This document shows, one piece after another, positions 312 to 32,000 of a stretch of DNA of 32,000 nucleotides. This DNA comes from Megasphaera elsdenii DSM 20460 (GTDB taxonomy: Bacteria > Bacillota > Negativicutes > Veillonellales > Megasphaeraceae): positions 2,446,943-2,478,942 of the forward strand of contig NZ_CP027570.1 in NCBI RefSeq assembly GCF_003010495.1, read 5' to 3'. The position numbers were made by a program, and so were the translations under genes. The number at the start of each line of letters is the position of its first letter. The first letter of the stretch is position 1. The notes below the pieces were generated by a model that saw only the letters and a list, made by a program, of their open reading frames with translations, searched no databases and was not told the DNA's origin.

Positions 312-347
312 AAAAAAGGCGCTGTCACACGAAGGCAGCGCCTTTTT
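311..347. terminator. Bidirectional rho-independent terminator between convergent genes
   Basis: A-run 311-317, stem GGCGCTG (318-324) / CAGCGCC (336-342), T-run 343-347. It lies between the DUF898 stop (311) and the stop of the minus-strand gene (352). Confidence 0.75.
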
Positions 348-7257: not shown

Positions 7258-7295
7258 AAAAAAGGAGCTGTCGCATCGTGACAGCTCCTTTTTGA
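7258..7295. terminator. Rho-independent terminator ending the leu operon (symmetrical, usable in both directions)
   Basis: AAAAAGGAGCTGTC-GCATCGT-GACAGCTCCTTTTT. Stem 7264-7272 / 7280-7288 with A and T runs on both sides, 32 nt downstream of the leuB stop. Confidence 0.8.
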
Positions 7296-14187: not shown

Positions 14188-14224
14188 AAAAAAGGAGCTG
14201 TCGCAAAGCGACAGCTCCTTTTGT
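14188..14224 (+). terminator. Rho-independent terminator of the helicase gene
   Basis: AAAAAGGAGCTGTCGC-AAA-GCGACAGCTCCTTTTG. The 11-bp stem is 14194-14204 / 14208-14218, followed by a T-run. The stem is almost identical to the terminator at 7258-7295. Confidence 0.85.
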
Positions 14225-14280: not shown

Positions 14281-14322
14281 TCACAGAATTCGCGCGGGCG
14301 CCCGGTATGGGCGCCCCTACGC
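14281..14322. repeat. REP-like element, family A (GGGCGCCC hairpin + CTACGCT)
   Basis: cacagaattcgcgcGGGCGCCCggtatGGGCGCCCCTACGCT, an 8-bp GC-only stem with a 5-nt loop. A near-identical copy lies at 17265-17306. Confidence 0.8.
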
Positions 14323-15815: not shown

Positions 15816-17064
15816 GAGCGGCTCCTTCCCGATGTTCAGCAATGTACTGCGCTGCGCTGAGGATGGCCAGGACATTGTGTTCAAAGACGATGCCCCCTTG
15901 GAGATAAATCATATAGGGGTCGCGGATTGGGCCGTCAGCAGACAATTCGATAGATGACCCTTGGACGAAATCGCCAGCAGCCATGATGATCTTATCGGCA
16001 TAGCCCGGCATATCGTCGGGAATTGGCGTGACATGGGCATCGACAGGCGAGAAGGACTGGATGCCCTGGCAGAAGAGGCACATATTCTGTTCGTTTTCCA
16101 GATAAATGGTCTGAATCAGGTCGACTCGCGGATCCTGGACGGCCGGTGAGACCTTGAAGCCCATCTTTTCAAAGACAGCTGCCGCGAAGACAGCGCCTTT
16201 GATGGCCTGTGCCGTGACGTGCGGTGCCATGAAGAAGCCCTGGAAAAAGAGGCGGTACCCAGCCGCATAGGAGCCGAGTTCGTCGCCCAGTCCGGGAGCC
16301 GTCAGGTAGTCGGCGGCTGCATGGACCAGTTCTTCTTTACCGGCAATATAACCGCCTGTCGGAGCGATGCCGCCACCGGGATTCTTGATGAGCGACCCGG
16401 CGATGATGTCGGCACCGGCTTCAATCGGTTCTTCTTCGGCAGCAAATTCACCGTAGCAGTTATCGACAAAACAAATCGTCTTCGGACTGACCTTCTTGAC
16501 GACAGAAATAATCGAACGGATATCATCAATCGTCAAAGAGGCCCGCGTGCTGTAACCGCGAGAACGCTGAATGAGGACCAGTTTTGGCTGCTTTTCAGCT
16601 ACGGCGGCCTCAATACCGGCCAAATCATAGGCGTTGTCCTTCAAGGGGACTTCTTCATAGCGGACGCCTTTTTCCTTTAGAGAATGGGGCGTTTCATGGG
16701 CGTAGCCGATAACGCCCTGCATCGTATCATACGGTGCGCCGACAAGGCTCATCATGAGGTCGCCTGTCTGCAGCAGGGCCAGCAGGACCGTCGCCAGCGC
16801 ATGGGTCCCCGATACGAAATGAGGACGGACAATGGCCTTTTCCGCTTTAAAGACGCGGGCAAAGACTTCGTCGAGCTTTTCCCGGCCCATGTCGCTGTAG
16901 CCATAGCCCGACGTACCGGCAAACTGGTACGACGAAATCTGGGCTTCCTTATAAGCAGCCAAGACTTTCGCCGTATTATGGAGACAAATCGTATCAATCC
17001 GTTCAAACTGGGCCGCACATTCGGCCAGCGCTTCTTTTCGTAAAACTTCTAAATCCAAAGACAC
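15808..17064 (-). CDS. YnbB-like PLP-dependent enzyme (methionine gamma-lyase family / aluminium-resistance family protein)
   Basis: 418 aa. SSYQFAGTSGYGYSDMGREKLDEVFARVFKAEKAIVRPHFVSGTHAL ... GSLIKNPGGGIAPTGGYIAG is the characteristic YnbB-family pattern. Confidence 0.85.
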   Translation of the reverse strand: MSLDLEVLRKEALAECAAQFERIDTICLHNTAKVLAAYKEAQISSYQFAGTSGYGYSDMGREKLDEVFARVFKAEKAIVRPHFVSGTHALATVLLALLQTGDLMMSLVGAPYDTMQGVIGYAHETPHSLKEKGVRYEEVPLKDNAYDLAGIEAAVAEKQPKLVLIQRSRGYSTRASLTIDDIRSIISVVKKVSPKTICFVDNCYGEFAAEEEPIEAGADIIAGSLIKNPGGGIAPTGGYIAGKEELVHAAADYLTAPGLGDELGSYAAGYRLFFQGFFMAPHVTAQAIKGAVFAAAVFEKMGFKVSPAVQDPRVDLIQTIYLENEQNMCLFCQGIQSFSPVDAHVTPIPDDMPGYADKIIMAAGDFVQGSSIELSADGPIRDPYMIYLQGGIVFEHNVLAILSAAQYIAEHREGAAHD

Positions 17065-17104
17065 TGTTATGATTCCTTTCTGTATTTGCTTAGTTTATAA
17101 TGAA

Positions 17105-17306
17105 AGGCTCTCCTAATAGGGGAGCTGTCAGCTTTGCTGACTGAGGGGTTGCTTTTCTCTCATACCGTTTGCAGAATTCTGAAAAAACAACCCTTCCGCC
17201 TCTTCGAGGCACCTCCCCTATTAGGGGAGGCTTTCTGCTCTTCGCTTTCATTCATCAGGATGTGCACAGGATTCGCGCGGGCGCCCCACGTGGGCGCCCC
17301 TACGCT
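17105..17306. repeat. Cluster of REP-like elements (family B copy, its partial inverted partner, family A copy) filling the miaA-ynbB spacer
   Basis: 17105-17160 reads AGGCTCTCCTAATAGGGGAGCTGTCAGCTTTGCTGACTGAGGGGTTGCTTTTCTC and matches 20069-20122 inside mutL. 17208-17240 carries the inverted CCTCCCCTATTAGGGGAGGCT. 17265-17306 is a family A copy matching 14281-14322. No credible ORF is present; the 66-aa plus-strand ORF is repeat-derived. Confidence 0.8.
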
Positions 17307-18238
17307 CTCCAGTGAGCGTCTATATCACGGATGACGGCCCGGGCCAGGGCGGCTTCGTCCTCGTACTGGTCTTTTTCGTACCAATGGATGTAGGGCATGC
17401 GTTTGAACCACGTGAGCTGACGCTTGGCAAAACGCCGCGTCCGGGTCTTGATGCGGGCCACAGCGTCATCGAGGGGCATCTGTCCCTGGAGATACAGGGC
17501 CAGCTCCTGATAGCCGATGGCCTTCATGGCCTGACAGTCCGTCGGGATGCCCCGGTCCAACAAGTGCCGCACTTCATCGACCCAGCCGGCAGCGATCATA
17601 GCGTCGACGCGTTCTTCGATGCGGGCATATAAGACGTCCCGCGGCAGGCGCAGACCGATGACATAGGCGTCATAGACCAGACCGTGAGCCTTGCCGGCGC
17701 GGACGAAGGTCTTCCCTTCGCCCTGTTCGATAGCACTGACCAAGCGGGTCAGGCGATGCGTATTGGAAAGCAGCTCGTGCCAATCTGGCGGCTGCCAGTC
17801 CGTTTCCCGGACAATATAGTCTTTCAGCGCCCCTTCATCGAGGGAGGCAATGCGTGCCTGAGCCGCTTCCTTGTCAGCTTCGGTCATGCGGGCCGTCTGA
17901 AAATCGTAGCCTTCCAGGAGAGATTGGACATAGAGCCCTGTGCCGCCGACGACGATTGGGACTTTGCCCTTCCCGTTGACTTCGGCAATGGCGCTCCCTG
18001 CCATCTCACAAAAACGGGCTGCCGAATAGGGCTCGTCAGGTTCGGCAATATCGATGAAATAATGGTGATAGCGGGCTAATTCGTCCGCCGTCGGTTTCGC
18101 CGTACCGATATCCATATGGCGGTAAATCTGGTAGGCGTCGCCAGAAATGAGGTCGGTCCCGTACTGTTCGGCCAGGGCAAAACTGAGCGCCGTCTTGCCG
18201 ACCGCCGTCGGGCCGATGATGGCCATTACTTTTTCCAT
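17300..18238 (-). CDS. miaA: tRNA dimethylallyltransferase (i6A37)
   Basis: 312 aa. P-loop GPTAVGKTALS, then LISGDAYQIYRHMDIGTAKPT and RRFAKRQLTWFKR. The last codons and the TAG stop lie inside the family A REP copy. Confidence 0.95.
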   Translation of the reverse strand: MEKVMAIIGPTAVGKTALSFALAEQYGTDLISGDAYQIYRHMDIGTAKPTADELARYHHYFIDIAEPDEPYSAARFCEMAGSAIAEVNGKGKVPIVVGGTGLYVQSLLEGYDFQTARMTEADKEAAQARIASLDEGALKDYIVRETDWQPPDWHELLSNTHRLTRLVSAIEQGEGKTFVRAGKAHGLVYDAYVIGLRLPRDVLYARIEERVDAMIAAGWVDEVRHLLDRGIPTDCQAMKAIGYQELALYLQGQMPLDDAVARIKTRTRRFAKRQLTWFKRMPYIHWYEKDQYEDEAALARAVIRDIDAHWRA

Positions 18239-19035
18239 GAATCACACTCCAATACGGCATAGCCAATGCGGCTGTATTTACCGCCATATAAAACAGCTTC
18301 CGGGAAATCGCGGCAGAGTTGGCGGAAATCCCGCTCCTTGATGACGACCCGGCGCCGGGCTTTCTGCAGCGCCCGTTCAATCAGGTCCCGCGTCAGACCG
18401 CCGTGTTCCATAATGGCCCGGACGGGCTGGAACTGGCAGCTCGCCTCGACAGGCCGCTGGAACATGGGATCGAAATAGAGGACGTCGTACACGGGCCCTT
18501 CGTCGGATAATAGGTAATCGCGATAATCGCCACGGCGCAGAGAAATCCGTCGCAGTGCCGCCGTGACGTCGTCTTTCTTGTGGACAAAATGGGAAAAGCC
18601 CCACGATGTGACCGCTTCCAATAGGGGTGACACCTCCAGGGCATCGACGCGTGACCCAGTAGGCAAGCCAAAAGAAGCAACGGCCGCATCGGCGCCAAAG
18701 CCGCAGGTGCAGTCGAGGACGGTGATAGGCAGCTTGGAAGACCCCCTCCCCATCAGCGCTTCCAAGAGATGGTCGCGCTGGCCTTTCCGCAAGTTCTGGA
18801 TGCGTAGTTCGGCCATGTTGAGACTGAAGAAATGGCTGCCTTCCGGACGGTCGATTTGGGGTCCCCGCGACGAATAGACGAGGAAGTCCTCGCCGTATTC
18901 ATCCATCAAGTCCTGGATAGTCCGCTGGTGCCGCAACACATAGGTGAAGCCCTGGCTTTCGGCCCAGGCCTTCCCTTCACATTGTAATTTTTCTTTGGCC
19001 TTCAATGAAGGCACGACGTAAATCATATGAGTCAT
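18226..19035 (-). CDS. Class I SAM-dependent methyltransferase, RsmJ/DUF548-like (putative 16S rRNA m2G methyltransferase)
   Basis: 269 aa. VLDCTCGFGADAAVASFGLPTGSRVDALEVSPLLEAV resembles the RsmJ motif VxDATAGLGRDAFVLAS...ERNP, and LYFDPMF is present. The gene overlaps the mutL stop by 4 nt and the miaA start by 13 nt, suggesting translational coupling. Confidence 0.6.
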   Translation of the reverse strand: MTHMIYVVPSLKAKEKLQCEGKAWAESQGFTYVLRHQRTIQDLMDEYGEDFLVYSSRGPQIDRPEGSHFFSLNMAELRIQNLRKGQRDHLLEALMGRGSSKLPITVLDCTCGFGADAAVASFGLPTGSRVDALEVSPLLEAVTSWGFSHFVHKKDDVTAALRRISLRRGDYRDYLLSDEGPVYDVLYFDPMFQRPVEASCQFQPVRAIMEHGGLTRDLIERALQKARRRVVIKERDFRQLCRDFPEAVLYGGKYSRIGYAVLECDSWKK

Positions 19036-19688
19036 GTCCGTTTAAATAAATGGGCTAATTCTTTCGGTGTAAAGCGGATGATCGTCGGCCGGCCATGAGG
19101 GCAGACATAGGGTTTTTCCGTATGGAACAAATCATCCAAAAGTTGTTTCATCTGGCGGATATTGAGGCTGTCGCCGGCTTTGACAGCACCGTGGCAGGAC
19201 AGATAGGCCAGGGAACGATGACGGACCATGGCTTTATCCGGTTCCTTCTGGTCGTGTAAGAGCAGGCAGATATCTTTCAGGGAATCAGCAATATCGCTGG
19301 TCTGCAAATCGCAGGGTACTTCTTCCACGCGCAGCGTCGTCGGCCCGGCTTCAGAATACGTATAACCCAGGTCGTTGAAGACGTCCTGCCGTTCCAGCAG
19401 AAGCGTCATATCGTCGCTGTCGACATCGACGAACTCCGGCGTCAGCAGCTGCTGGCTCGGCATCCGTTCGACACGCTTACAAAAGGTATCATAGCGGATC
19501 CGTTCGTGGGCGGCATGTTGATCGACGATATATAAATCCTGGCCCTTCTTGGCAATGATGAAGCAGTCCGCCACTTCTCCCAAAGGAATGAAGACGTCGT
19601 CATCGCCATCAAAGACGATTTTCGGCGCCCCTGCCTCGGAAACGACAGATGTCGCCTCTGACGGGCCGCCTTGTCCATGCTGGGCCAA
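19032..19688 (-). pseudogene. mutL: mutL C-terminal fragment (dimerisation/endonuclease domain), out of frame with the N-terminal fragment
   Basis: PLGEVADCFIIAKKGQDLYIVDQHAAHERIRYD, SCHGAVKAGD and CPHGRPT are the endonuclease-type MutL C-terminal-domain motifs. The frame is open upstream to a TAA at 19782-19784, and the first start-like codon is TTG 19688. There is no SD and the frame differs from the N-terminal ORF. Confidence 0.85.
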
Positions 19689-19744
19689 AGCCTGGGAAAA
19701 GAGACTGGGTTGATCGGCTCCCCCACGTTCTTGGCGGGCACCCC

Positions 19745-20207
19745 ACGCAGGAGGCTCCCCTAATAGGCCCTTTGGGCCCGGTTAGGACCATCCGCAAGAG
19801 GCTCCCCTGATAGGCCCTTTTGGGCCCGGTCAGGACCATCCGCAGGAGGGTTCAGGCCGGCTGCCCAAACGGAGAGCCCGGCTGGAGCTGTCCGCGCAGC
19901 GGACTGAGAGGTTGTCTTTTCCTGCGGGCCGGCTGGAGCTGTCCGCTGCGGGCCGCCCTCTGGGACGGCCCCTACGGAGGTTGCTTTCTCCCACTGCGGG
20001 CCGCCCTTTGGGACAGCCCCTACGGTGGTTGTTTTGCCACCCTCTTGCGGGCGGGCGCCCCACACAAGAGGCTCCCCTGATAGGGGAGCTGTCCGCGTAG
20101 CGGACTGAGAGGTTGCTTTCTCCTGCGGGCCGCCCTTTGGGACGGCCCCTACGGAGGTTGCTTTTTCCTGCGGGCCGCCCTTTGGGACGGCCCCTACATC
20201 GACACCG
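19745..20207. repeat. Array of REP-like palindromic units (families B, C and D) embedded in the mutL interdomain linker
   Basis: Family C unit CTGCGGGCCGCCCTTTGGGACGGCCCCTACGGAGGTTGCTTT occurs at 20167-20197, 20122-20166, 19994-20036 and 19946-19990. Family B occurs at 20068-20122 and 19881-19922. Family D (GAGGCTCCCCTRATAGGCCCTTTGGGCCCGGTYAGGACCATCCGCA) occurs twice in tandem at 19751-19796 and 19798-19844. Confidence 0.85.
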
Positions 20208-21226
20208 ATGGTCTTGGCGATGGCTTCGGGCTTTTCCTGGGCCACCAAGGCCGTGACGATACTGTGGTAAATGGCCCGATAAACGGCTTGTTCATCGGAG
20301 AATTTGATTTCCGTCTTGGCAGGATGGACATTGACGTCGATCGTCGCCGGGTCGACATGGAGATGGAGCATGGCAAAGGGATAGCCCGATTTCGGCAGCA
20401 TGGCGTGATAAGCATTGTCGATGGCTTTGAACATCAAAGGATTATGGACGATGCGGTGATTGACGATGCACGTCTGCCAGTTGCGGTTGCTCTTTAAGAC
20501 CGACGGCTTGCCTACATAGCCTTCCAGGCTGATGCCGTCCTGGTCGGCAGAGATGGCAAAGACATCGCGGGCGACGTTGGCCCCGTAGATATTGGCAATC
20601 GTTTCCCGCAGGTCCCCTGTACCGCCGGTCTTCATCGTCGTCCGGCCATTATTGGTAAAGGTAAAGGCAATAGCCGGATTGGCTAGAGCCAGTTTAGTCA
20701 CCATTTCAGAGATTTTCGAACTTTCTGTCCGTTCGCTCTTGAGGAACTTGCGCCGCGCTGGCGTATTGTAAAAGAGGTCGCTTACTTCCATCGTCGTCCC
20801 GACCGGTGCACCGGCCTGGTCTTCTGCTGTAATTTCGCCCCCATCGAGGATGAGGTGCGTGGCAAAATCGTCGTCAGCCTGGCGCGTCGTAATCTGCATG
20901 TGCGATACGGCAGCAATACTGGGCACGGCTTCGCCGCGGAAGCCCAGAGACGTAATGGCAAAGATATCTTCGACAGAACTGATTTTGCTCGTGCCGTGAC
21001 GGATGATGCACTTATGGGCATCTTCCGGACTCATGCCGCAACCGTCGTCAGTGACCCGCATATAGGACTGGCCGCCATCGGCGATTTCCACTTCAATGGC
21101 ATGGGCACCGGCATCAATGGCATTTTCCACCAATTCCTTGATGCACGACGCCGGCCGTTCGACGACTTCGCCGGCAGCGATTTTATTGCGCGTCGCTTCA
21201 TCTAAGACATGAATGATTGAACTCAC
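19760..21226 (-). pseudogene. mutL: mutL N-terminal fragment (GHKL ATPase + transducer domain + repeat-filled linker) ending at TAG 19760-19762
   Basis: IHVLDEATRNKIAAGEVVERPASCIKELVENAIDAGA...DDGCGM...SLGFRGEA are the canonical MutL N-terminal-domain motifs. After about residue 335 the sequence becomes VGAVPKGGPQEKATS repeats. The stop lies inside a family D repeat, and the start overlaps the mutS stop by 4 nt. Confidence 0.9.
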
Positions 21227-23820
21227 TGGATCCCACTTCCTTCTTTGGCATCTTTTTGCAGATTATATAAGAAAGAAATCGCTTCAATCGGCGTCATACT
21301 GCTGACATCGACACTGAGCAGCTTATCGATGACGGGACTGGAAAAGAGATTGTCCCCCATGGGTGACGGCGCAGGGTTCACAGGCGCCTTGGCCGGGACG
21401 GGAGCGCCGCCGTTCTTTTCCAAATCTTCCAAAATGACGTCGGCCCGCTTGAGCAGGCTTTCCGGCAAGCCGGCCAGGCGCGCCACGTGCAGGCCGTAGC
21501 TGCGATCGGCGCCGCCGGGAATGATGCGCCGCAGGAACTTGATGTTCTTGCCCCGTTCCTTGACGGCGACCGTATAATTCTTGATTTTCGGCGAATCGTC
21601 GGCCATGGCGATGAGTTCGTGATAATGCGTCGCAAACAGCGTCAAGGCGTGGATATGCTTCAGGCAGTATTCGATGACGGCCCTGGCGATGGACATGCCG
21701 TCAAAGGTGCTCGTCCCGCGGCCGATTTCATCGAGGATGAGCAGGCTGCGGCTAGTCGCATGTTTCAGGATGTACGACACTTCCTTCATTTCCATCATGA
21801 ACGTACTCTGACCGGTGAGGATATCATCGCTGGCGCCGATGCGGGTAAAGATGCGGTCTACCGGGCAAATAGACCCTTCCTTGGCCGGAATGAAGGAGCC
21901 AACTTGAGCCATGAGGACCAACACGGCGACTTGGCGCATATACGTCGACTTACCGGCCATATTCGGTCCGGTAATGACCAGGATTTCATGATCTTCATGG
22001 TTCAAAGTGACGTCATTGGGAACGAACAATTCGTCTTTCAAATACTTTTCAATAATGGGATGACGGCCGTCCTTGATGGAAATCGTCGCCTTCGTGTTGA
22101 GGCTGGGACGGACGTAGCGGTTGTCATAAGCCGCGCAGGCCAGGCTGTACAAGCAGTCGATGCGGGCAATGGCCCGGGCCGTTGCCTGCATGGCCGGGAT
22201 ATGTCCCTGGATCTGACGGCGGATGTCGCCGAAAAGCTTATATTCCAAAGCCAGCATCCGTTCCTGGCTGGTCAGGACTTTGACTTCAAACTCCTTCAAT
22301 TCCGGCGTGATATAGCGTTCGGCATTGACCAAGGTCTGCTTGCGTACGTAATAATCGGGAATGGGCTTGGTATTGGCATGGGAAATCTCGAAGTAATAGC
22401 CAAAGACTTTGGTATAGCCGATTTTCATCTTAATGCCGGTCTTTTCCTTTTCCTTCTCTTCCAGTTCCTGCAAAAAGGCATGGCTGTTGGCCGCAATGGA
22501 ACGGATTTCATCGAGTTCCGGCGAAAAACCATCGCGGATGACGCCGCCGTTGCGGATGACCAATCCCGGTTCGTCCTTGATGCCCCGGCAGAGCAGGTCA
22601 TAGACGTCGTCATGGGTCTGCAAGCGGTCATTGAGGTTGTGCAGGAGGTCGGCGCTGGCCCCGGCCAAGACGTTTTTGAGCTGCGGAATGACGGCCAGCG
22701 ATTCCCGCAGGGCCACTAAGTCTTTCGGGCTTACCGTTCCCGTTTCGATACGGGTCAGGATGCGTTCAAAGTCGTAGATCCGGTTCAGCACGTCAGCTGT
22801 ATCTTGGCGCATGATTTCGTGGAGGACGAAGTCTTCGACGGCATCTTGGCGGCGCGTAATATCGGCAATGCGGATAAGCGGCGCTTCCAACCACTTGCGC
22901 AGGAGCCGCCCGCCCATAGCCGTCTGGGTCTTGTCCAAGACATCGAGGAGCGTCCCCCGGCGGCCGCCGTCGCGGACGTTCTGCGTGATTTCCAGATGGC
23001 GCAGGCTGGCCGCATCGACGACCAGGCGCCGGTCATTGTCGATGTGTTCCAGGGAATTGATGTGAGAAATATCGGACTGCATGACGTCGCTGACATAGTC
23101 CAGGAGCATGCCGATGCAGTCGCCAGCCGCTGTGGCAGCCGCAAAATCTTCAGGCGGGAAATAGGACCGGGCCTGTTCGCTATAATCGACGTTGTCATCA
23201 GCAGGAAATTCCGTGACCGTACATTGCGCCAAATGGCTTCGCAAGTATTCGCGGACAGCGTCCATATCCTTCCCCATATGGGCGTAAATGAGTTCACTCG
23301 GTTCGTAGACGGCAAGGATATCGAACAAGGAGTCTTCCATGACCGACGCAGCGCAGTCAGCCCACAGACATTCGCCGGTCGTGACGTCCATAAGGGCCAT
23401 AGAAAGGATGCCTTCTTTTTCATTCAGGCAGCCGATGTAATTGTTCTGCTTCGACGCTACGGCATTTTCCAGGGTAATCGTCCCTGGCGTAATGACCTTG
23501 ATGATCTTGCGCTTGACCAAGCCTTTCGCCAGCTTCGGGTCCTCCATCTGTTCGCAGATAGCGACCTTATAGCCTTTGTGGACCAGCCGTTCAATATAGG
23601 TATCGGCCGAATGAAAGGGCACGCCGCACATAGGGACTTTTTCCTTATTGCCGCCAGCCCGGCCCGTCAAGGTCAGGTCCAATTCGCGCGACGCCGTCAG
23701 GGCATCGTCAAAAAACATTTCATAGAAGTCGCCGAGGCGGAAAAAGAGGATTTTATCCTGGCACTGCTCTTTGACTTCCATGTACTGCTGCATCATAGGC
23801 GTTAATTTTTTTCCTGCCAA
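21223..23820 (-). CDS. mutS: DNA mismatch repair protein MutS
   Basis: LTPMMQQYMEVKEQ...FFRLGDFYEMFFDDA, Walker A GPNMAGKSTYMRQ, and DEIGRGTSTFDG. The likely start is TTG 23820, giving (M)AGKKLTPMMQQY, with SD AAGGAAGG upstream and no overlap with miaB. The maximal ORF reaches ATG 23865. The gene ends in TGA. Confidence 0.95.
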   Translation of the reverse strand: MAGKKLTPMMQQYMEVKEQCQDKILFFRLGDFYEMFFDDALTASRELDLTLTGRAGGNKEKVPMCGVPFHSADTYIERLVHKGYKVAICEQMEDPKLAKGLVKRKIIKVITPGTITLENAVASKQNNYIGCLNEKEGILSMALMDVTTGECLWADCAASVMEDSLFDILAVYEPSELIYAHMGKDMDAVREYLRSHLAQCTVTEFPADDNVDYSEQARSYFPPEDFAAATAAGDCIGMLLDYVSDVMQSDISHINSLEHIDNDRRLVVDAASLRHLEITQNVRDGGRRGTLLDVLDKTQTAMGGRLLRKWLEAPLIRIADITRRQDAVEDFVLHEIMRQDTADVLNRIYDFERILTRIETGTVSPKDLVALRESLAVIPQLKNVLAGASADLLHNLNDRLQTHDDVYDLLCRGIKDEPGLVIRNGGVIRDGFSPELDEIRSIAANSHAFLQELEEKEKEKTGIKMKIGYTKVFGYYFEISHANTKPIPDYYVRKQTLVNAERYITPELKEFEVKVLTSQERMLALEYKLFGDIRRQIQGHIPAMQATARAIARIDCLYSLACAAYDNRYVRPSLNTKATISIKDGRHPIIEKYLKDELFVPNDVTLNHEDHEILVITGPNMAGKSTYMRQVAVLVLMAQVGSFIPAKEGSICPVDRIFTRIGASDDILTGQSTFMMEMKEVSYILKHATSRSLLILDEIGRGTSTFDGMSIARAVIEYCLKHIHALTLFATHYHELIAMADDSPKIKNYTVAVKERGKNIKFLRRIIPGGADRSYGLHVARLAGLPESLLKRADVILEDLEKNGGAPVPAKAPVNPAPSPMGDNLFSSPVIDKLLSVDVSSMTPIEAISFLYNLQKDAKEGSGIQ

Positions 23821-23834
23821 AGTCTCACCTTCCT

Positions 23835-25163
23835 TTAGTGCACTAAGTGACCTTTGAGGACCCATGTCTGGCCCTTGTCGACCTGGACCGGCACGGTATC
23901 ACCGATAGCGACGGAGCCGTCATTTTCCCAAATGATCATCTTGTTGCCCGTCGTCCGGCCGAACCAGTGATTGGCGTCATTCTTAGTCGGCCCTTCGACG
24001 ATGACATCATAGACATGGTCTTCCATTTCTTTATTCTTGGCTCAACTATAGACGTTCTGTACTTCCATCAGGCGCTGAAGGCGACGGCTCTTTTCTTCCT
24101 GCGGAATCTGGTCTTCCATCTTCGCTGCCGGTGTCCCTGTCCGCGGCGAATAAATGAACGTATAAGCCATATCGTACTGGACGCGTTTGAGCAGGTTCAG
24201 CGTATCTTCAAACATGGCTTCCGTTTCGCCAGGAAAGCCGACGATGATGTCCGTCGTCAGGACCAAGTCGGGCATGCGCTTGCGGGCATAGTCGACGAGT
24301 TCCAAGTAATGTTCCACCGTATAACCGCGGTTCATCTTCTTCAAGAGCTCATTGGAACCGCACTGGATAGGCAGATGCATGTGGTTGACGACCTTCTGGC
24401 TGTCGGCAATGGCGTCGATCATGGCAAAGGTCATATCCTTGGGATGGCTGGTCATGTAGCGCACCCGTTCGATACCGTCGATATCATCGACAGCGGCGAC
24501 GAGCTTGGAGAAATCCGTGCCGTCTTTGAGATCCAGACCATACGAATTGACGTTCTGACCGAGCAAGGTGATTTCCTTGTAGCCTTCAGCGGCAACCTTC
24601 TTGATTTCTTCCACAATGGCGTCGATAGGGCGGCTCACTTCGCGGCCCCGGACATAAGGCACGATGCAGTACGTGCAGAACTTGTTGCAGCCGTTCATGA
24701 TGGGAATCCAGGCAAAGAACTTCTGGAAACGCTTGACCGGCATATCGTGGAAGGCCGGCAGGCTCATGTCGGCAGCCATATAATGGTCGGCCTTGCTGCG
24801 CCGTTCCTGGATGAGCTCGATGAGCTTGTGGATGTTGTGCGTCCCAATGACCAAGTCGATATGAGGCGCCCGCTTGAAGAGCTTATCCTGCCATTCCTGG
24901 GCCATGCAGCCCGTGACGGCAATGATCAAATCGGGGTTCTGCGTCTTCAAGTGCTTGAGTTCGCCAATCTTTCCCAGCGTCTTGTCTTCCGCCGTTTCGC
25001 GGACACAACACGTATTGATGAGGATGACATCGGCTGTATCCAAATCCTCCGTATGATGATAGCCCAGCTCTTCTAACTGCCCGGCATAATGCTCACTGTC
25101 AGACATATTCGCCTGACAGCCGTAGGAAATAATATGATAAAATCGATTGCTCTGAAAATCCAT
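23835..25163 (-). pseudogene. miaB: tRNA-2-methylthio-N6-dimethylallyladenosine synthase MiaB, interrupted by one in-frame TGA (24042-24044) between the radical-SAM core and the TRAM domain
   Basis: ORF 24042..25163 carries the UPF0004 domain (YGCQANMSDSE) and the radical-SAM motif CNKFCTYCIVP. ORF 23835..24026 is a TRAM domain (VYDVIVEGPTKNDANHWFGRTTGNKMIIW). The two are in the same frame, separated only by TGA plus five sense codons. Confidence 0.9.
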
Positions 25164-25241: not shown

Positions 25242-25700
25242 GGGCTTTTTAGGGCCTAGCGGCCCCGTTCATCGTAGGTCGTTCATCGTTCATCGAATTT
25301 TGGGGACTGACGGCCCGCCGGTCGCCGGTCGCCTCGGACTCAGATGCCGCTTCGCGGCAATAACCTCCGACTAACAACATCGCCTCGAGTGACCTTCGGC
25401 TCGTGGAAAAAATCGTGGCTCGTGGTTCGTGGTTTGTAAAACCTCACCATTATACTCGAATGGGCTGTGGTCGAATCTCACAGCGGGCCGCCAGCCACGG
25501 CTGTCCGTTTTGGCAACCGTCTTGCACCTCCCGTTGGTCGGCACCTGTCGGGCCAAAAAGGCTTCTAGGCCGGCCCCTACGCACAAGGCCGTTAGCCATT
25601 GTATTTGGGTTATATTCGGTAAACGACCTTCCCACTCATCGCCTGTATGCGATACGTAGGGGCCGACCTGTCCAAGGCGGCCCGCCATCTGCGGCCTGCG
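25226..25700. repeat. Non-coding, GC-rich spacer of about 475 bp made of degenerate REP-like units and short tandem repeats
   Basis: Family-C-like units with GGCCCCTAC/GTAGGGGCC occur in both orientations: 25551-25583 (GGGCC...GGCCGGCCCCTACGC) and 25646-25676 (reverse complement GCGGGCCGCCTTGGACAGGTCGGCCCCTACG). Short tandem repeats are GTTCATCG x3 (25267-25296), CCGGTCGC x2 (25318-25333) and TCGTGG x4 (25401-25432). All ORFs here are Arg/Pro/Gly-rich and unconvincing. Confidence 0.65.
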
Positions 25701-25701
25701 T

Positions 25702-26525
25702 TCACTGGTCCTCGTGTCTCCGTTTGATGCGGTAGACGGTGGATTGGCCGATACCGAGTGCTTTGGCGATTTGGGCACCGCTTTTGCCTTCACGGCTCAT
25801 TTTTTCAATCATTTCATAGGTGCGCCCCCTGAGATGGCCTTCTTCGTCAAGTTTTCCCCGTTCCTCAGCAACAACATCCCGAGGCATGACACGCAAGACG
25901 TCTTTTACCTGAATCGTCTGATTCTTGACGACCAGCACCAGTCGTTCGATGATATGGGCCAACTGCCGTACATTACCGGGCCAGGGCTGATTCTTCAAAA
26001 GCTCCCAGACATTGGTATCAAAGGTCCCGATAAGATCCGTAACCCCTTGGGACGCGGCCCGCCGGATAAGGTCCCGCAATTCCCGTTCATCATATTCCGG
26101 CGCCAAGCGATAAAAAGAGACATCCATGACCTGCAACGCATCTTCCAAGTCATCATAGTAATCGCGGAGGGCAAAGGGGATGATAGCCCCTAGTTTCCCG
26201 CCTTTAGGGGTAAAATAAATACACCTCAACAGATCCAGGACACTAGGCTGAATCACATAGACCTGTACCTGAGGATAGGAAGCCGCCAGCTTCGTCGCCA
26301 TCGGTTCCCAGGCAAAAAAGCGACCACTTCCGAACGGACGGCTTCTGCAATCTGAAGCTTGGCCCCTTTACGCGCCCCGTTAATGAGGATAACCTGTGAG
26401 GGTTCAATCCATCGGGATACCCGTGTCATCTGCTGGACCATGTCATAGGCAGCCCCATTCAGCGTAATAACAAAAACTTTTAAGTTTCCATTTACCAATC
26501 CCGCGTAAAATCTCTCGTCATTCAT
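25702..26525 (-). pseudogene. PrpR_N-domain regulator derived from a sigma-54 activator (no AAA+ core; lid + HTH retained), frameshifted at a T6 run
   Basis: ORF 26253..26525 gives KVFVITL...VILINGARKGAKLQIAEAVRSEVVAF. ORF 25702..26301 gives VQVYVIQPSVLDLL...GVTDLIG, fused directly to WPGNVRQLAHIIERL and the HTH SGAQIAKALGIGQSTVYRIKRR. The frames join at ttttttg (plus-strand A6 at 26314-26319). Confidence 0.7.
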
Positions 26526-26898: not shown

Positions 26899-29800
26899 TT
26901 ATTTAGCATCGGAAATGACGCGGACGCGTTCGATGGTCGGTTTGCCATCGCGGTCTTTCTGAATCGTGTCGATGCGGATGTACTGGAGTTCTGGCGAAAA
27001 TTCTTTGACCAGCTTGCTCAGTTCCGGATCCGTGCTGCCGACACCGCTTTCGACGATGCGGTAGACGATGGCAGCAAATTCATAACGCGTCATCATGCGG
27101 TCGCCTTTAAATTCGCCATCCGGGTAGCCTTCAAGGATACCTTTCTTGGCCAGCGTCGTGACGTACTGGTAAGCCCAATGGTTTTCGGCCACATCCGGGA
27201 AGAGCACGCTCTTGGCCGGGTCGACAGCCATGCCATGCATACTTTGCAGTTTGGCAATGAGGGCGTCCTGTTCGGCCATGTGCTGGCGCATGGCTTTCAT
27301 TTCCTTAGCCATGGCCACGCGAGATGTGGAAACATGGTTACCCTGGCCAAGCTTAATGCTGACACCGGCATTGACCATGTTTTCCCCGCCGCCGAAGGAA
27401 CCGCCGACGCTGAACATGGTGTCTTCATTGGGACGGTAGTAAGCACCGACAGCGGCCGCATTGGCACCACGGTAATTGCCGTAACCAGCGGCGAAGTCCC
27501 ACTTATCATCCGGGTCGAAGTCCAGCGGATGGAGAGCTGCCAGTGCAGCGGCACCGGCACCGACGCGATTGATGCGGTTGCCCAGTTTATTGACCGAACC
27601 GCTGAGGCCATTGATAGCCTGGTCACGCTGCCAGAGCTGGCTGCCGTTGACGGCATCCGTCGAATCCTGGCTGACCTTGCCCGGTGCAACGCCTTCAATC
27701 TTGTTGCCGCCCATATTGACAGCGCCCTGCTGGATGGTAATGTCCTGATGACTGCTATCGCCGGTTTTGATGGTAAGACCACCGTTATCCATAGTCGTGT
27801 TGCCTGTCGTAATGGTTTTAGCTTCGATACTGCTGATACCTTTAAGGTCTTTGGCCAATTTGACTTGCAATTTGGCATTATCACCATCTTGCGAAGCAAC
27901 GACACCGATATTATTGCCATCGGCATATTCCGTAGCACCACCGTAAATCTGGACATTCTTGTTCAGTTTCACCGCAGCATTGCCGGAATCGCCGCTGTAC
28001 TTCATGCCATCGTCCATGGTAGCCACTTCATGAGTTACATGGTTGTGGTCTTCGTATACGACGCGGTCCATGCCGTCTTTGCCACCATGGCCGTCGGTAC
28101 CATCGACACCGACCTGGCCATTCTTGACATGGATATCAGCCGATGCGTTCTGACCATCTTTGCCGGCAGAACCCGTCAGGCCAATGTGGCCTTCCGTACC
28201 ATTCTTACCGTCGATACCCTTGATGGTGACACCATCTTTGCCATCTTTACCTTTGATGGAAATGCCATCCTTGCCATCAATGCCGATGCCGGACTTGCCA
28301 TCAGCCCCATTGATACCCATATGGCCATTCTGTCCATCTTTACCGTCTTTGCCAGCACCACCGATATTCAGGTTATCGCTGAGCTTCAGATCATAAACCT
28401 TCTGCCCATCGTCGCCTGTCTTCTGAGCAATCTGGAGGTTGCCTTCCGAATACGTATTTTCTGTTGTTGGTGCAACTGTACCGCCATTGACGGTGACTTC
28501 CGTATGATGCTTGTCGACCTTATCGATCTTCGTGTTCACATCAGCGATCTGCTTGTTGACATTCGACTCGACCTGATGGAGCTGATCCTCTGTAGCAGCA
28601 CGGCCGCTGACATAGGAACCATCATTCTTCCAGGTCTTATTATCCAGATTAGTGACAAACTTACCGCCATCGGCTTTCTTATCCGTAGCCTTGCCATCCT
28701 TATCATAAATGGTCAGGCTGCTGTCGCCATTTTTGATGTTGCCAATCTTGACGCCATTGTTGCCGCCAGCGACAATCTGGCCCTTCGAGCCATCGACAGT
28801 GACCTTGTTGTCGCCTGTACCGGCCGTAATCGTGCCATCGGTGCCGCTGATAGCAACTGTCTTGTCACCCTTAGCGGTATCGCCAAAAGTGACATCCTTG
28901 GCCAAATCGACGGTGTATTTTTTACCGCCAGTCGAATTCATACCTTCTGTGACAGTGATATTCTTCGAACCAGCTTCTACCGTCGCATGCTGACCAGCCA
29001 GAGTCTTGACGTCATTCAACTGGGATACATTTACAGCATCCGTATCATTGGTACCAGCAACCACATTGGTAATTCTGTTGCCGCCGTTGTCGAGGCCCCT
29101 ATCCGTCAACGAGACTGTCGTCGTCTTATCTCCCTCTTTCTTGGTAATGGCCATACCGCCATCGTTGATGGTCGTATTGCCCATCGTGACAGAGCCGTTG
29201 TTGCCCAGGTTGAGGTCCTTGTTCAGTTTGACCAGCAGCTGGCCGTTATCTCCGTCCTGGCTCGATACGACGCCGATGTTGCCGTCTGTAAGGTCGCTTT
29301 CATTCTTGGCATTGCCTTTGACATTGACCTGTTTGTCCAGTTTGACTGCCGAGGGGGTGCCAAAGTCACCACCGAATTTCAGGCCATCATCGAGGGTGGC
29401 CACTTCATGTTTGGTCTGGCTCTTGTCTTCGTAGATGATGCGCGTTATGCCATCTGTCCCATCGACGCCTGCTTTACCTTTGTCGCCCTTGATGGTGAGG
29501 CCGTTGGCCCCATCCTTGCCATTCAGGCCGATGCTGCCGTCCCTGCCGTTGATGACTACGGCCGAGCCGTCTTTGCCATTGACGCCGATCGTACCGTCAA
29601 CACCATTCTTGCCCGGTTCGCCTTTTTCACCGACCGTGACGCTGTTGCCCTTGATGTCCTTGTCCATCTTGATGGTCAGGCTGCCATCGGTATTCCCGAT
29701 GACCTTGAGGTTTTCTCCGGAATAATTCGCATCCGCTTTCGTGCCTTCCCCTTGGATGGTCAGTTTCTGGCCCAGGTTGCGGTGAACGGTGACTTCCTTG

Positions 29801-31806
29801 TTGTTACCCTGGAAATCCAGGCCTTTCATTTTCAGGTCAGTTTCCGTAGTCTGAACAATGTTCTTCACGTCCCCGATATTCGCGCCGTTGGTCAGCGTGT
29901 TATAGGTCGGTTTGCCATCAGCCGTGCCATCGGAGCCGCTGCCCATGTTCTTCACCTGGTTGCCGCCCAGCATTACATTGCCCTCTGTGATGGCAATATT
30001 CTTATTTGTATCATCATTCTTGATGGTCAGGCCGCTGTTGTCGATGGTGGTATTTCCCGTCGTGACACTCGTCAGGTCCGTCAGCTTCTTTGCCATCTGG
30101 ACTTTCAGTTTGCCATCGGCCGTACTCTGGACAGCGATGTTCTTATCCGTCAGGTCGCCCTGGGCTCCGCCGACGATGTCGAGCTGTTCATTCAGTTTCT
30201 TCGTGATGACCTTATCATCATCGCCCTTGAACTTCAGGCCGTCATCAAGGGTAGCCACTTCATGTTTGGTCTGGCTCTTGTCTTCGTAGATGATGCGCGT
30301 TATGCCATCTGTCCCATCGACGCCTGCTTTACCTTTGTCGCCCTTGATGGTGAGGCCGTTGGCCCCATCCTTGCCATTCAGGCCGATGCTGCCGTCCCTG
30401 CCGTTGATGACTACGGCCGAGCCGTCTTTGCCATTGACACCGATCGTACCGTCAACACCATTCTTGCCCGGTTCGCCTTTTTCACCGACCGTGACGCTGT
30501 TGCCCTTGATGTCCTTGTCCATCTTGATGGTCAGGCTGCCATCGGTATTCCCGATGACCTTGAGGTTTTCTCCGGAATAATTCGCATCCGCTTTCGTGCC
30601 TTCCCCTTGGATGGTCAGTTTCTGGCCCAGGTTGCGGTGAACGGTGACTTCCTTGTTGTTACCCTGGAAATCCAGGCCTTTCATTTTCAGGTCAGTTTCC
30701 GTAGTCTGAACAATGTTCTTCACGTCCCCGATATTCGCGCCGTTGGTCAGCGTGTTATAGGTCGGTTTGCCATCAGCCGTGCCATCGGAGCCGCTGCCCA
30801 TGTTCTTCACCTGGTTGCCGCCCAGCATTACATTGCCCTCTGTGATGGCAATATTCTTATTTGTATCATCATTCTTGATGGTCAGGCCGCTGTTGTCGAT
30901 GGTGGTATTTCCCGTCGTGACACTCGTCAGGTCCGTCAGCTTCTTTGCCATCTGGACTTTCAGTTTGCCATCGGCCGTACTCTGGACAGCGATGTTCTTA
31001 TCCGTCAGGTCGCCCTGGGCTCCGCCGACGATGTCGAGCTGTTCATTCAGTTTCTTCGTGATGACCTTATCATCATCGCCCTTGAACTTCAGGCCGTCAT
31101 CAAGGGTAGCCACTTCATGTTTGGTCTGGCTCTTGTCTTCGTAGATGATGCGCGTTATGCCATCTGTCCCATCGACGCCTGCTTTACCTTTGTCGCCCTT
31201 GATGGTGAGGCCGTTGGCCCCATCCTTGCCATTCAGGCCGATGCTGCCGTCCCTGCCGTTGATGACTACGGCCGAGCCGTCTTTGCCATTGACACCGATC
31301 GTACCGTCAACACCATTCTTGCCCGGTTCGCCTTTTTCACCGACCGTGACGCTGTTGCCCTTGATGTCCTTGTCCATCTTGATGGTCAGGCTGCCATCGG
31401 TATTCCCGATGACCTTGAGGTTTTCTCCGGAATAATTCGCATCCGCTTTCGTGCCTTCCCCTTGGATGGTCAGTTTCTGGCCCAGGTTGCGGTGAACGGT
31501 GACTTCCTTGTTGTTACCCTGGAAATCCAGGCCTTTCATTTTCAGGTCAGTTTCCGTAGTCTGAACAATGTTCTTCACGTCCCCGATATTCGCGCCGTTG
31601 GTCAGCGTGTTATAGGTCGGTTTGCCATCAGCCGTGCCATCGGAGCCGCTGCCCATGTTCTTCACCTGGTTGCCGCCCAGCATTACATTGCCCTCTGTGA
31701 TGGCAATATTCTTATTTGTATCATCATTCTTGATGGTCAGGCCGCTGTTGTCGATGGTGGTATTTCCCGTCGTGACACTCGTCAGGTCCGTCAGCTTCTT
31801 TGCCAT
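26899..31806 (-). CDS. Trimeric autotransporter adhesin (YadA-like stalk/head repeats, YadA membrane anchor, coiled coil, C-terminal SLH domain). This is the reading frame downstream of a 20-bp duplication; the true gene continues upstream.
   Basis: 1635 aa. Repeated modules TTGNTTIDNSGLTIK and G-x-x-G runs (GEKGEPGKNGVDGTIGVNGKDG). Neck DAVNGSQLW, then anchor AGAAALAALHPLDFDPDDKWDFAAGYGNYRGANAAAVGAYYRPNEDTMFSVGGSF (about 27340-27657). SLH domain FPDVAENHWAYQYVTTLAKKGILEGYPDGEFKGDRMMTRYEFAAIVYR (about 27050-27200). The 'start' at 31806 is an internal Met of the repeat unit. Confidence 0.93.
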   Translation of the reverse strand: MAKKLTDLTSVTTGNTTIDNSGLTIKNDDTNKNIAITEGNVMLGGNQVKNMGSGSDGTADGKPTYNTLTNGANIGDVKNIVQTTETDLKMKGLDFQGNNKEVTVHRNLGQKLTIQGEGTKADANYSGENLKVIGNTDGSLTIKMDKDIKGNSVTVGEKGEPGKNGVDGTIGVNGKDGSAVVINGRDGSIGLNGKDGANGLTIKGDKGKAGVDGTDGITRIIYEDKSQTKHEVATLDDGLKFKGDDDKVITKKLNEQLDIVGGAQGDLTDKNIAVQSTADGKLKVQMAKKLTDLTSVTTGNTTIDNSGLTIKNDDTNKNIAITEGNVMLGGNQVKNMGSGSDGTADGKPTYNTLTNGANIGDVKNIVQTTETDLKMKGLDFQGNNKEVTVHRNLGQKLTIQGEGTKADANYSGENLKVIGNTDGSLTIKMDKDIKGNSVTVGEKGEPGKNGVDGTIGVNGKDGSAVVINGRDGSIGLNGKDGANGLTIKGDKGKAGVDGTDGITRIIYEDKSQTKHEVATLDDGLKFKGDDDKVITKKLNEQLDIVGGAQGDLTDKNIAVQSTADGKLKVQMAKKLTDLTSVTTGNTTIDNSGLTIKNDDTNKNIAITEGNVMLGGNQVKNMGSGSDGTADGKPTYNTLTNGANIGDVKNIVQTTETDLKMKGLDFQGNNKEVTVHRNLGQKLTIQGEGTKADANYSGENLKVIGNTDGSLTIKMDKDIKGNSVTVGEKGEPGKNGVDGTIGVNGKDGSAVVINGRDGSIGLNGKDGANGLTIKGDKGKAGVDGTDGITRIIYEDKSQTKHEVATLDDGLKFGGDFGTPSAVKLDKQVNVKGNAKNESDLTDGNIGVVSSQDGDNGQLLVKLNKDLNLGNNGSVTMGNTTINDGGMAITKKEGDKTTTVSLTDRGLDNGGNRITNVVAGTNDTDAVNVSQLNDVKTLAGQHATVEAGSKNITVTEGMNSTGGKKYTVDLAKDVTFGDTAKGDKTVAISGTDGTITAGTGDNKVTVDGSKGQIVAGGNNGVKIGNIKNGDSSLTIYDKDGKATDKKADGGKFVTNLDNKTWKNDGSYVSGRAATEDQLHQVESNVNKQIADVNTKIDKVDKHHTEVTVNGGTVAPTTENTYSEGNLQIAQKTGDDGQKVYDLKLSDNLNIGGAGKDGKDGQNGHMGINGADGKSGIGIDGKDGISIKGKDGKDGVTIKGIDGKNGTEGHIGLTGSAGKDGQNASADIHVKNGQVGVDGTDGHGGKDGMDRVVYEDHNHVTHEVATMDDGMKYSGDSGNAAVKLNKNVQIYGGATEYADGNNIGVVASQDGDNAKLQVKLAKDLKGISSIEAKTITTGNTTMDNGGLTIKTGDSSHQDITIQQGAVNMGGNKIEGVAPGKVSQDSTDAVNGSQLWQRDQAINGLSGSVNKLGNRINRVGAGAAALAALHPLDFDPDDKWDFAAGYGNYRGANAAAVGAYYRPNEDTMFSVGGSFGGGENMVNAGVSIKLGQGNHVSTSRVAMAKEMKAMRQHMAEQDALIAKLQSMHGMAVDPAKSVLFPDVAENHWAYQYVTTLAKKGILEGYPDGEFKGDRMMTRYEFAAIVYRIVESGVGSTDPELSKLVKEFSPELQYIRIDTIQKDRDGKPTIERVRVISDAK

Positions 31807-31840
31807 CTGGACTTTCAGTTTGCCATCTGGACTTTCAGTT
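31801..31840. repeat. 20-bp direct tandem duplication (tgccatctggactttcagtt x2) that frameshifts the adhesin gene
   Basis: Other copies read ...cttctt-tgccatctggactttcagtt-tgccatcggcc (for example 30945-30975). Here the 20-mer occurs twice (31801-31820 and 31821-31840). The unit is bounded by the 7-nt microhomology TGCCATC. Confidence 0.95.
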
Positions 31841-32000
31841 TGCCATCGGCCGTACTCTGGACAGCGATGTTCTTATCCGTCAGGTCGCCCTGGGCTCCGC
31901 CGACGATGTCGAGCTGTTCATTCAGTTTCTTCGTGATGACCTTATCATCATCGCCCTTGAACTTCAGGCCGTCATCAAGGGTAGCCACTTCATGTTTGGT
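31815..32000 (-). pseudogene. Upstream part of the same adhesin gene (extends beyond the window), terminated by TGA 31815-31817, which is created by the duplication
   Basis: In the repeat-unit frame, translation reads ...LKFKGDDDKVITKKLNEQLDIVGGAQGDLTDKNIAVQSTADGKLKVQMAN-stop. It is identical to the other repeat copies up to the duplication. Confidence 0.85.

Follow-up and report, generated by a model that had tools for sequence, protein, structure and literature searches.

Can the tether of a core DNA-repair protein be built from repeats that normally lie between genes, and is the gene that carries it still able to make that protein? The mutL locus of Megasphaera elsdenii DSM 20460 raises both questions. 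It lies in a stretch of 32,000 nucleotides (contig NZ_CP027570.1, positions 2,446,943 to 2,478,942), hereafter the window, in which mutL is encoded on the minus strand (coordinates are given on the plus strand of the window) and its two halves stand in different frames that meet inside an array of palindromic repeats. Our reading, to which we give a probability of roughly 0.75, is that the linker of this endonuclease-type MutL is an array of dispersed, normally extragenic palindromic modules, and that the frameshift, if real, is a null allele.

The N-terminal open reading frame (ORF; 19760-21226, minus strand; 488 aa) overlaps the end of mutS (21223-23865) by 4 nt at its start and encodes the GHKL ATPase, the transducer domain, and most of the linker, with Pfam matches to HATPase_c_3 (residues 27-127) and DNA_mis_repair (residues 210-327). 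It ends at a TAG (19760-19762, minus strand) that arises in the shifted frame from a TATTAG variant of one of the repeats, unit D. The C-terminal half follows in the -1 frame, which is open for 249 codons (19032-19781, minus strand) and carries the MutL_C dimerization/endonuclease domain (residues 67-206 of that frame, E = 2.7e-31), such that no single continuous frame spans the gene. Both the stop inside a D unit and a second frame open from 19781 had been proposed in an earlier interpretation made from the letters and their ORFs alone (the sequence-only reading), and the ORF listing, translation, and Pfam search agreed with both. Endonuclease MutL proteins carry the motifs DQHA(X)2E(X)4E and C(P/N)HGRP as well as a clamp-binding QxxLxP-like motif. 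The translated C-terminal half contains DQHAAHERIRYD, in which D replaces the last E, together with CPHGRP and QQLLTP, and we therefore assigned the protein to the endonuclease, MutH-independent type.

Between the two halves, about 495 nt (19704-20197) comprise ten hairpin modules from at least three families, which follow one another along the gene in the order C, C, B, W, C, c, b, D, D*, w, all on the minus strand. The array opens with two tandem 45-nt copies of unit C (20153-20197 and 20108-20152), each read as VGAVPKGGPQEKATS, which register as a 45-nt tandem repeat with 97% matches (20109-20197). Unit B comes next (20066-20107) and consists of two adjoining hairpins, GCTCCCCT-GAT-AGGGGAGC and GTCCGC-GTA-GCGGAC, read as QSATRTAPLSGEPL. 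It is followed by module W (20024-20065, read as VWGARPQEGGKTTT), one half of a repetitive extragenic palindromic (REP) hairpin of the GCGGGCGCCCCAC type, whose full form stands at 17278-17303 and also in linkers from other strains. The pattern scan and module map then placed a 48-nt unit C REP with one stem mismatch (VGAVPKGGPQWEKATS; 19976-20023), module c, in which a truncated unit B and a unit C REP are fused (GGAGCTGTCCGC joined to TGCGGGCCGCCCTCTGGGACGGCCCCTAC; 19907-19975), and module b, which is the second unit B hairpin (GGAGCTGTCCGCGCAGCGGACTG) with its junction (19844-19906, read as QSAARTAPAGLSVWAAGLNPP). The last full modules are an intact 48-nt unit D (19796-19843, read as ADGPDRAQKGLSGEPL) and the frameshifted 47-nt distal copy D* (19749-19795), which would read ADGPNRAQKGLLGEPP once repaired; together they appear as a 48-nt tandem repeat (19746-19849) with 91% matches and one indel. 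A half-REP remnant, module w (GGCGGGCACCCCACGC; 19704-19748), closes the array at its C-terminal end.

The family C core, GGGCCGCCCTTTGGGACGGCCCCTAC, was found at four sites (19950, 19998, 20127, and 20172) with at most one mismatch and at none in 100 shuffles, while the family B core was found twice in the linker, once in the miaA-metC intergenic region, and never in shuffles. When the linker was compared with the rest of the window by BLAST, the sole significant match joined 20069-20119 to 17105-17155 (86% over 51 nt, E = 2e-7). The four family C copies, the in-frame pair spaced 45 nt apart, and the near match of the B unit to an intergenic copy at 17105 had all been noticed from the sequence alone, and pattern counts, the tandem repeat, and the BLAST alignment upheld each of them. 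The accompanying claim that the linker units also occur in intergenic DNA of the window held for family B, but not for the exact family C core, which has no copy in the window outside mutL, although variant GTAG palindromes do occur there. Folded as single-stranded DNA, unit B was the most stable (dG = -16.3 kcal/mol, z = -4.7), followed by unit C (dG = -11.7 kcal/mol, z = -2.8), the intact unit D (dG = -9.9, z = -1.7), and the distal unit D (-8.1, z = -0.6).

Unit C is a REP-like element that also occurs beyond mutL. It has the form GGGGCCGTCCC-AAA-GGGCGGCCC, a GC-rich imperfect palindrome whose stem spans 9-10 bp and has one bulge, in keeping with the length of 20-40 nt, stem of 5-13 bp, and loop of 2-20 nt that characterize REPs. 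On the opposite strand it reads as a terminal GTAG followed by the palindrome, the hallmark of the GTAG REP superfamily (PMC3733652); the tag is absent from units B and D. A scan of metagenome contigs with the pattern GGGCCGCCCTNTGGGACNGCCCCTAC recovered at least 116 stretches, with counts pooled from many samples and species, and 103 of the 116 listed had no MutL domain. The 138 matches fell into 74 flank clusters, at least 65 of them without a mutL locus, and only two of the listed non-mutL matches were in frames open for at least 70 codons on each side. Two apparent intragenic copies, on contigs L128 and L235, were rejected, their spanning frames having the look of antisense translations, which left no convincing case of a copy inside a gene other than mutL among the matches listed. 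All five unit C contigs that we tested by exact protein look-up belonged to Megasphaera. In the window itself, a scan for GTAG palindromes returned seven matches against 1.4 in shuffles (maximum 4). These observations support unit C as a REP-like hairpin with a GTAG tag that belongs to the genus Megasphaera.

Several such elements were intergenic in the window. One lies between convergent genes (14295-14320, minus strand; palindrome scan), and another (GTAGGGGCGCCCACGTGGGGCGCCCG; 17278-17303, minus strand) sits at the 3′ end of miaA, overlaps its stop codon, and has the sequence of the linker module 'VGAPTWGAR' of other strains. A REP-rich intergenic stretch (25465-25683) contains a disrupted unit C with CCCCTAC at its end, along with a GTAG REP in inverted orientation at 25656-25683. 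Additionally, a human-gut metagenome contig with unit C (L215) encoded a truncated, IS200-like and RAYT-like Y1_Tnp protein (PF01797, E = 3.5e-9; 4582-5007, minus strand), and two unit-C-type REPs forming an inverted pair lie 230-330 nt away. A homologue 47% identical to this transposase was present on a Megasphaera genome contig (L068, 1291-1742), where it is flanked by inverted GC(C/T)GCGGC…GCATyTGArTCCGAG hairpin motifs resembling the second hairpin of unit B.

As a separate observation, unit C REPs are very often bordered immediately by short tandem arrays whose units are 8 nt long (GTGGCTCG / GTGGTTCG, equivalent to CGAGCCAC / CGAACCAC / CTAGCCAC), as at 25400-25430 of the window and at many metagenome loci, among them L141, L175, and L238, which suggests a larger composite element.

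Unit B had a far wider distribution. Its core, GGAGCTGTCNGCNNNGCNGACTGAG, was found in at least 120 stretches of the genome contigs scanned (L003-L122), with matches in Clostridia, Bifidobacterium, Collinsella, Caulobacter, Phenylobacterium, other Alphaproteobacteria, Deinococcus, Bacteroidales, Selenomonadaceae, and Megasphaera; some 20-25 copies were present in 778 kb of non-mutL Megasphaera contigs. The two paired positions that the search pattern left unconstrained were Watson-Crick complementary in 136 of the 138 listed copies, with all four pair types represented, and the hairpin upstream of unit B co-varies too. In the window, the hairpin motif GGAGCTGTCNGC-NNN-GCNGACTGAG occurs at 17121-17145, 19884-19908, and 20085-20109. 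The first of these belongs to a complete intergenic element of the unit B type (17105-17240, plus strand) that adopts a four-way cruciform when folded (dG = -38.1 kcal/mol, z = -7.8). Specifically, 105 nt of it (17125-17229), bounded by CCTCCCCTAATAGG / GCTCCCCTATTAGG, are absent from L001 and L002, two M. elsdenii contigs about 98% identical to the window, and the miaA-metC spacer ranges from 125 to 236 nt between strains. The element has long complementary ends, and no target-site duplication could be called, the flanking CTCCCCTAnTAGG repeat itself being inside the hairpin. Unit B makes up one half of a larger palindromic element that occurs across phyla. A search of 16900-20400 against Rfam by E-value gave only one sub-threshold match, to the Caulobacter sRNA CC3552 (RF01529; window 20047-20148, 24.5 bits against a gathering threshold of 50), and at the gathering threshold no Rfam family matched any of 20 repeat-bearing loci.

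Unit B was also seen in frame in protein linkers of other phyla: in an Lhr-type DNA-damage helicase of Phenylobacterium sp. LjRoot225 (L109, near 674), between DEAD (32-203) and Helicase_C (292-395), and in an E2 acyltransferase of a Hyphomonadaceae metagenome-assembled genome (L020, near 1382), between the lipoyl (10-80) and E3-binding (208-241) domains. Three terminator-like hairpins in the window (312-346, 7258-7292, and 14188-14222) share one stem, AAAAAAGGAGCTGTCGC-NNN-GCGACAGCTCCTTTT, the 5′ arm of which, GGAGCTGTC, is identical to that of unit B, and similar CTGTCGCA…TGCGACAG hairpins recur beside REPs on Megasphaera contigs.

These results support a linker made of palindromic units that are otherwise dispersed in non-coding DNA. 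The sequence-only reading had described a mutL linker constructed from REP-like elements, and that description stands, with units C and B found widely outside mutL. It had also called such repeats unusual as a protein linker, a fair remark, although earlier work has already documented REPs within repair genes (PMC3733652).

We compared the linker across the 120 best MutL protein clusters, a list biased toward full-length proteins. All 120 were full length with their modules read in frame, and total length varied from 672 to 787 aa, with all of the variation within the linker. Splitting the linkers into modules gave about 43 architectures, of which that of the window, CCBWCcbDD, was the commonest (26/120); the length variants included isolate genomes (693, 709, and 731-732 aa). 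The repeat-encoded linker comprised about 160 aa in the window and from about 100 to about 215 residues across strains. It had been suggested that related genomes would reveal whether the linker is free of repeats, variable in module number, and intact in frame. Module number did vary and the frame was intact in the 120 clusters, but the linkers of the closest relatives were themselves built of repeats.

Substitution patterns set the linker apart from the rest of the protein. In six pairs from four strains of the same architecture, the flanking domains (19032-19700 and 20215-21226) had dS of 0.05-0.19, dN of at most 0.008, and dN/dS below 0.1. In contrast, the 160 repeat-encoded codons (19704-20197) had dS of 0.007-0.023 and dN of 0.003-0.018 in all six pairs, so that dS was 5-25 times lower than in the flanks and dN about equal to dS. 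By these values the linker is under no selection at the protein level and evolves like repeat DNA and not like protein, which is the pattern expected if its copies are kept alike by homogenization or by constraint at the DNA level. A phmmer search with the linker alone against 1.84 billion representatives returned only three proteins, namely two partial Megasphaera MutL and one short protein with a module-built N-terminal extension. The modules read in the linker frame are essentially a specialty of Megasphaera MutL.

Whole modules were present in some strains and absent from others, as expected of intragenic insertions, and this extended to the neighboring gene. The SAM_MT gene (18226-19035, minus strand) has a 60-nt, hairpin-forming, in-frame insert (…GAESLSCEGEGDRSRW…) in L001 and L002 that the window lacks (at about 18746-18750), its product measures 269, 271, 286, or 305 aa depending on the strain, and another Megasphaera lineage (P0121) has the same 60-nt module in its MutL linker.

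The frame break lies in the loop of the distal unit D hairpin, where the window has three T on the plus strand (19771-19773; A3 on the coding strand) and the other copies have four. The distal copy reads CCCTTTGGGCCC (19768-19779), where CCCTTTTGGGCCC stands in the sister copy and in every conspecific sequence that was compared. With one T added after 19773, the frames merge into a 731-aa MutL in which the D units read ADGPDRAQKGLSGEPL and ADGPNRAQKGLLGEPP. The idea that a single indel separates the two halves was therefore correct, the lesion being one base missing from a T4 run. The restored protein differs at two residues from P0005, and the best database matches are named Megasphaera elsdenii MutL. 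Relative to L001 and L002, the missing base is the only indel in mutL.

The closest sequence available to us was a metagenome contig (L123) that encodes a MutS identical to that of the window and is 99.9% identical over 7.6 kb, with two SNPs outside the linker. Its MutL is intact at 747 aa and has one extra 48-nt D unit, and its last D unit shares the private SNPs of the window yet retains A4. A single 49-nt slippage event between the two was considered and rejected, because the SNP pattern of the last unit requires both a 48-nt unit change and a 1-nt deletion; two events therefore separate the window from L123. The break is present in the assembled sequence and known from this single allele, with none of about 16 other mutL loci whose linker DNA we inspected being broken. 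We consider it only somewhat more likely than not that the base is missing from the strain itself. If it is truly absent, the simplest reading is that this is a recent loss-of-function allele of mutL, and that the strain is a mismatch-repair-deficient mutator.

The course of events that we envisage starts from the linker as a disordered tether, in which insertions that are in frame and free of stops would be tolerated. The repeats would then expand, contract, and reshuffle through slippage or unequal recombination of 45- or 48-nt units, while homogenization with other copies, or constraint on the DNA, would keep them alike, and the outcome would be a linker that varies from strain to strain. 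In the window, loss of a base from the A4 run in the loop of the last D hairpin would end the ATPase half at 488 residues, with the sequence ...RAQRAY, and leave a C-terminal half that is not credibly translated.

Several points weigh against this account. Unit D is nearly private to mutL, with just two weak relatives of its core in the 778 kb of non-mutL Megasphaera contigs. The association of unit C with a RAYT comes from one truncated ORF and one homologue and is suggestive only. A repeat-free ancestral linker is implied only indirectly, and the low dS of the linker could alternatively reflect recent exchange of the segment between strains. Finally, the 488-aa product, beginning with either V or M, was not on record in an exact look-up, and a homopolymer or polishing error in a GC-rich hairpin repeat may be the source of the missing base.

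That last point leads to the most serious competing explanation, in which the frameshift is an artifact of sequencing or assembly, the strain makes an intact 731-aa MutL of the commonest architecture, and the repeat-built linker is the only real feature. One homopolymer base in a GC-rich hairpin within tandem repeats is a classic trouble spot, every conspecific sequence that we compared is intact, L123 has A4 at this very position, and a truncated product is recorded nowhere else. A second repeat-associated frameshift in the window, caused by a 20-nt duplication in an adhesin gene (described below), could also point to weak assembly of repeats. Conversely, there were no other 1-nt coding indels in about 17 kb aligned to L001 or in the 7.6 kb aligned to L123, which argues that the assembly is not generally error-prone, and a four-base run is seldom miscalled by short-read or HiFi data. 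Loss-of-function alleles of mutL are, moreover, common in natural and laboratory bacterial populations. We regard an artifact as possible but the less probable origin of the break; it would leave the repeat-built linker untouched.

Might the array instead serve a purpose through its instability? The nucleotide conservation of the linker, with dS so far below that of the flanks and dN about equal to it, points to a view in which the REP array is no mere passenger but is kept as REP DNA and acts as an instability hotspot that now and then knocks out, and is able to restore, mismatch repair, furnishing M. elsdenii populations with a self-limiting supply of mutators made by their own selfish repeats. 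We consider this unlikely. A related proposal, that mutL is a contingency locus in which slippage or REP-directed rearrangement toggles mismatch repair and produces transient mutators, in analogy to the tandem-repeat switches proposed for mutL of Salmonella, gains from the rapid change of array architecture between strains, from the two linker events (one 48-nt unit and 1 nt) that accompany only two SNPs in 7.6 kb between the window and L123, and from the expectation that a +1 reversion in the A3 run would be favored in a repair-deficient cell; repeat-mediated conversion of mutL alleles also has precedent (PMC2955026). However, all unit lengths, including the 45 and 48 nt of the tandem units, are multiples of three, so that ordinary slippage preserves the frame, and the A3/A4 tract is far shorter than the usual phase-variable tracts. 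Recurrent ON/OFF alleles were not seen among the roughly 16 inspected loci or the 120 clusters, a sample limited in size and biased toward intact genes. Nor did any of 5.8 billion proteins match out-of-frame translations of the linker, a weak negative in that frameshifts that stop quickly are invisible to it. The suggestion that MutL is switchable thus found no support, nothing favors a programmed switch, and we judge the contingency locus to be very doubtful.

It is also quite improbable that the repeats are home-grown in mutL and that their likeness to intergenic DNA is incidental or due to outward spread. Such an origin would fit the observations that mutL holds tandem duplicates of two unit types, that unit D is hardly seen outside it, and that the modules are read in the linker frame almost only in Megasphaera MutL. 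Against it, unit C occupies at least 65 non-mutL contexts and unit B at least 120 stretches across phyla, the covariation marks independent families, related modules are polymorphic in the neighboring gene and intergenic region, and the B/C junction of module c is found identically in intergenic DNA of a sister lineage (L153/L179/L224/L230).

Ribosomal frameshifting was rejected as a means of joining the frames, since a -1 shift is needed and the heptamer CCCAAAG does not fall in phase with the zero frame (GCC CAA AGG), and transcriptional slippage was rejected on a run of just three bases. That MutL functions as two polypeptides, or as one by frameshifting, is scarcely credible even though both halves are otherwise free of lesions and the indel lies in a dispensable-looking linker, because we found no promoter-like site inside mutL (terminator-like sites were at chance level), the C-terminal frame has no ATG before its domain and a first start codon, TTG at 19688, that lacks an upstream Shine-Dalgarno sequence, no canonical slippery site is present, and the disordered tether is itself needed for the function of MutL and MutL-alpha (PMC6902014, PMC6393296); the expression in two pieces that the sequence-only reading had allowed for is accordingly unlikely.

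A dispersed-repeat origin of the linker places it among phenomena of a known kind. REPs of the GTAG and CGTC types were reported inside genes, many of them for replication and repair (uvrA, uvrB, uvrD, polA, recBCD, and dnaE2), where their clusters encode 43-82 aa and were suggested to be neutral because they are inserted where the protein is flexible, in linkers or loops (Di Nocera et al. 2013, PMC3733652). The classic in-frame case is that of the Rickettsia palindromic elements (Ogata et al. 2000, as cited in PMC10969869). The Megasphaera modules resemble both in being mostly extragenic palindromes that are occasionally in frame, in flexible linkers or loops, in clusters that encode tens of residues and with replication and repair hosts over-represented. 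They differ in their host gene, mutL, in belonging to a Negativicute, and in combining about ten modules of at least three families. They also account for almost all of the linker (about 160 aa as opposed to 43-82 aa), in an array that is reshuffled between strains. The main text of PMC3733652 mentions neither MutL nor Firmicutes, and the portion of its supplements that we covered contains no entry for MutL/mismatch or Megasphaera/Veillonella. A full-text literature search for the repeat sequences, and another for M. elsdenii repeats together with mutL, returned nothing relevant. What is new is the host gene, the phylum, the construction of a whole linker from repeats, and the strain-level remodeling.

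Other systems offer partial parallels. Unit C matches REP/REPIN-RAYT systems (PMC3116915, PMC3337134, PMC3733652) in its GTAG palindrome, its dispersed and mostly extragenic distribution, sometimes as inverted pairs, and the RAYT-like Y1 transposase ORF beside such a pair in L215, while units B and D lack GTAG and the 47% identical homologue in L068 is flanked by another hairpin. In Salmonella, repeats within mutL are likewise slipped-strand substrates able to inactivate the gene (Chen et al. 2010, PMC2955026), but there an in-frame 6-bp tandem repeat in the ATPase region changes copy number and reversion has been demonstrated, whereas the Megasphaera lesion is a 1-nt deletion in a four-base run of a linker REP hairpin, seen once and with no evidence of reversal. 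Pneumococcal BOX elements and other MITE-like repeats (PMC10969869) share the variable number of hairpin modules, the stable folds, and the presence/absence polymorphism, though BOX elements are chiefly intergenic, and the unit B element has no established cognate transposase or terminal inverted repeats bordered by a clear target-site duplication. SpyCIM1 of Streptococcus pyogenes (PMC4689407) is also a mobile element at mutL that modulates mismatch repair, yet it is an island of 13 kb with site-specific integration and excision at the 5′ end of the gene, while the Megasphaera repeats belong permanently to the coding sequence.

The locus matters as a case of selfish DNA tolerated in a gene of an essential pathway, with the entire tether of a core DNA-repair protein composed of repeat DNA, and it extends the known replication and repair bias of intragenic REPs to mutL and to the Negativicutes. 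The strain linkers, from about 100 to about 215 residues, form a natural test set for how MutL depends on its tether, and the linker is a ready-made marker for strain typing. M. elsdenii serves both as a probiotic for ruminants and as a production host. Were mutL broken, the strain would be genetically unstable.

Two further genes in the window showed interruptions of their own. The HTH/AAA_lid gene (25371-26301) encodes 246 aa in L001 and appears in the window as two overlapping ORFs (140 and 199 aa), with the split beside a REP-rich stretch (25340-25700); it also appears split in L123 (90 and 199 aa) and L240 (73 and 135 aa), and this gene may be decaying or variable. The gene for a YadA-like adhesin (26899-32000+, minus strand) contains 855-nt repeats, the third of which has the 20-nt unit TTTGCCATCTGGACTTTCAG duplicated in tandem (31799-31838), as opposed to a single copy in each of the other two. 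The duplication is bounded by a 9-nt direct repeat, TTTGCCATC, and the adhesin frame that enters from the end of the window stops just past it (…KVQMAN*), after which the gene resumes in another frame.

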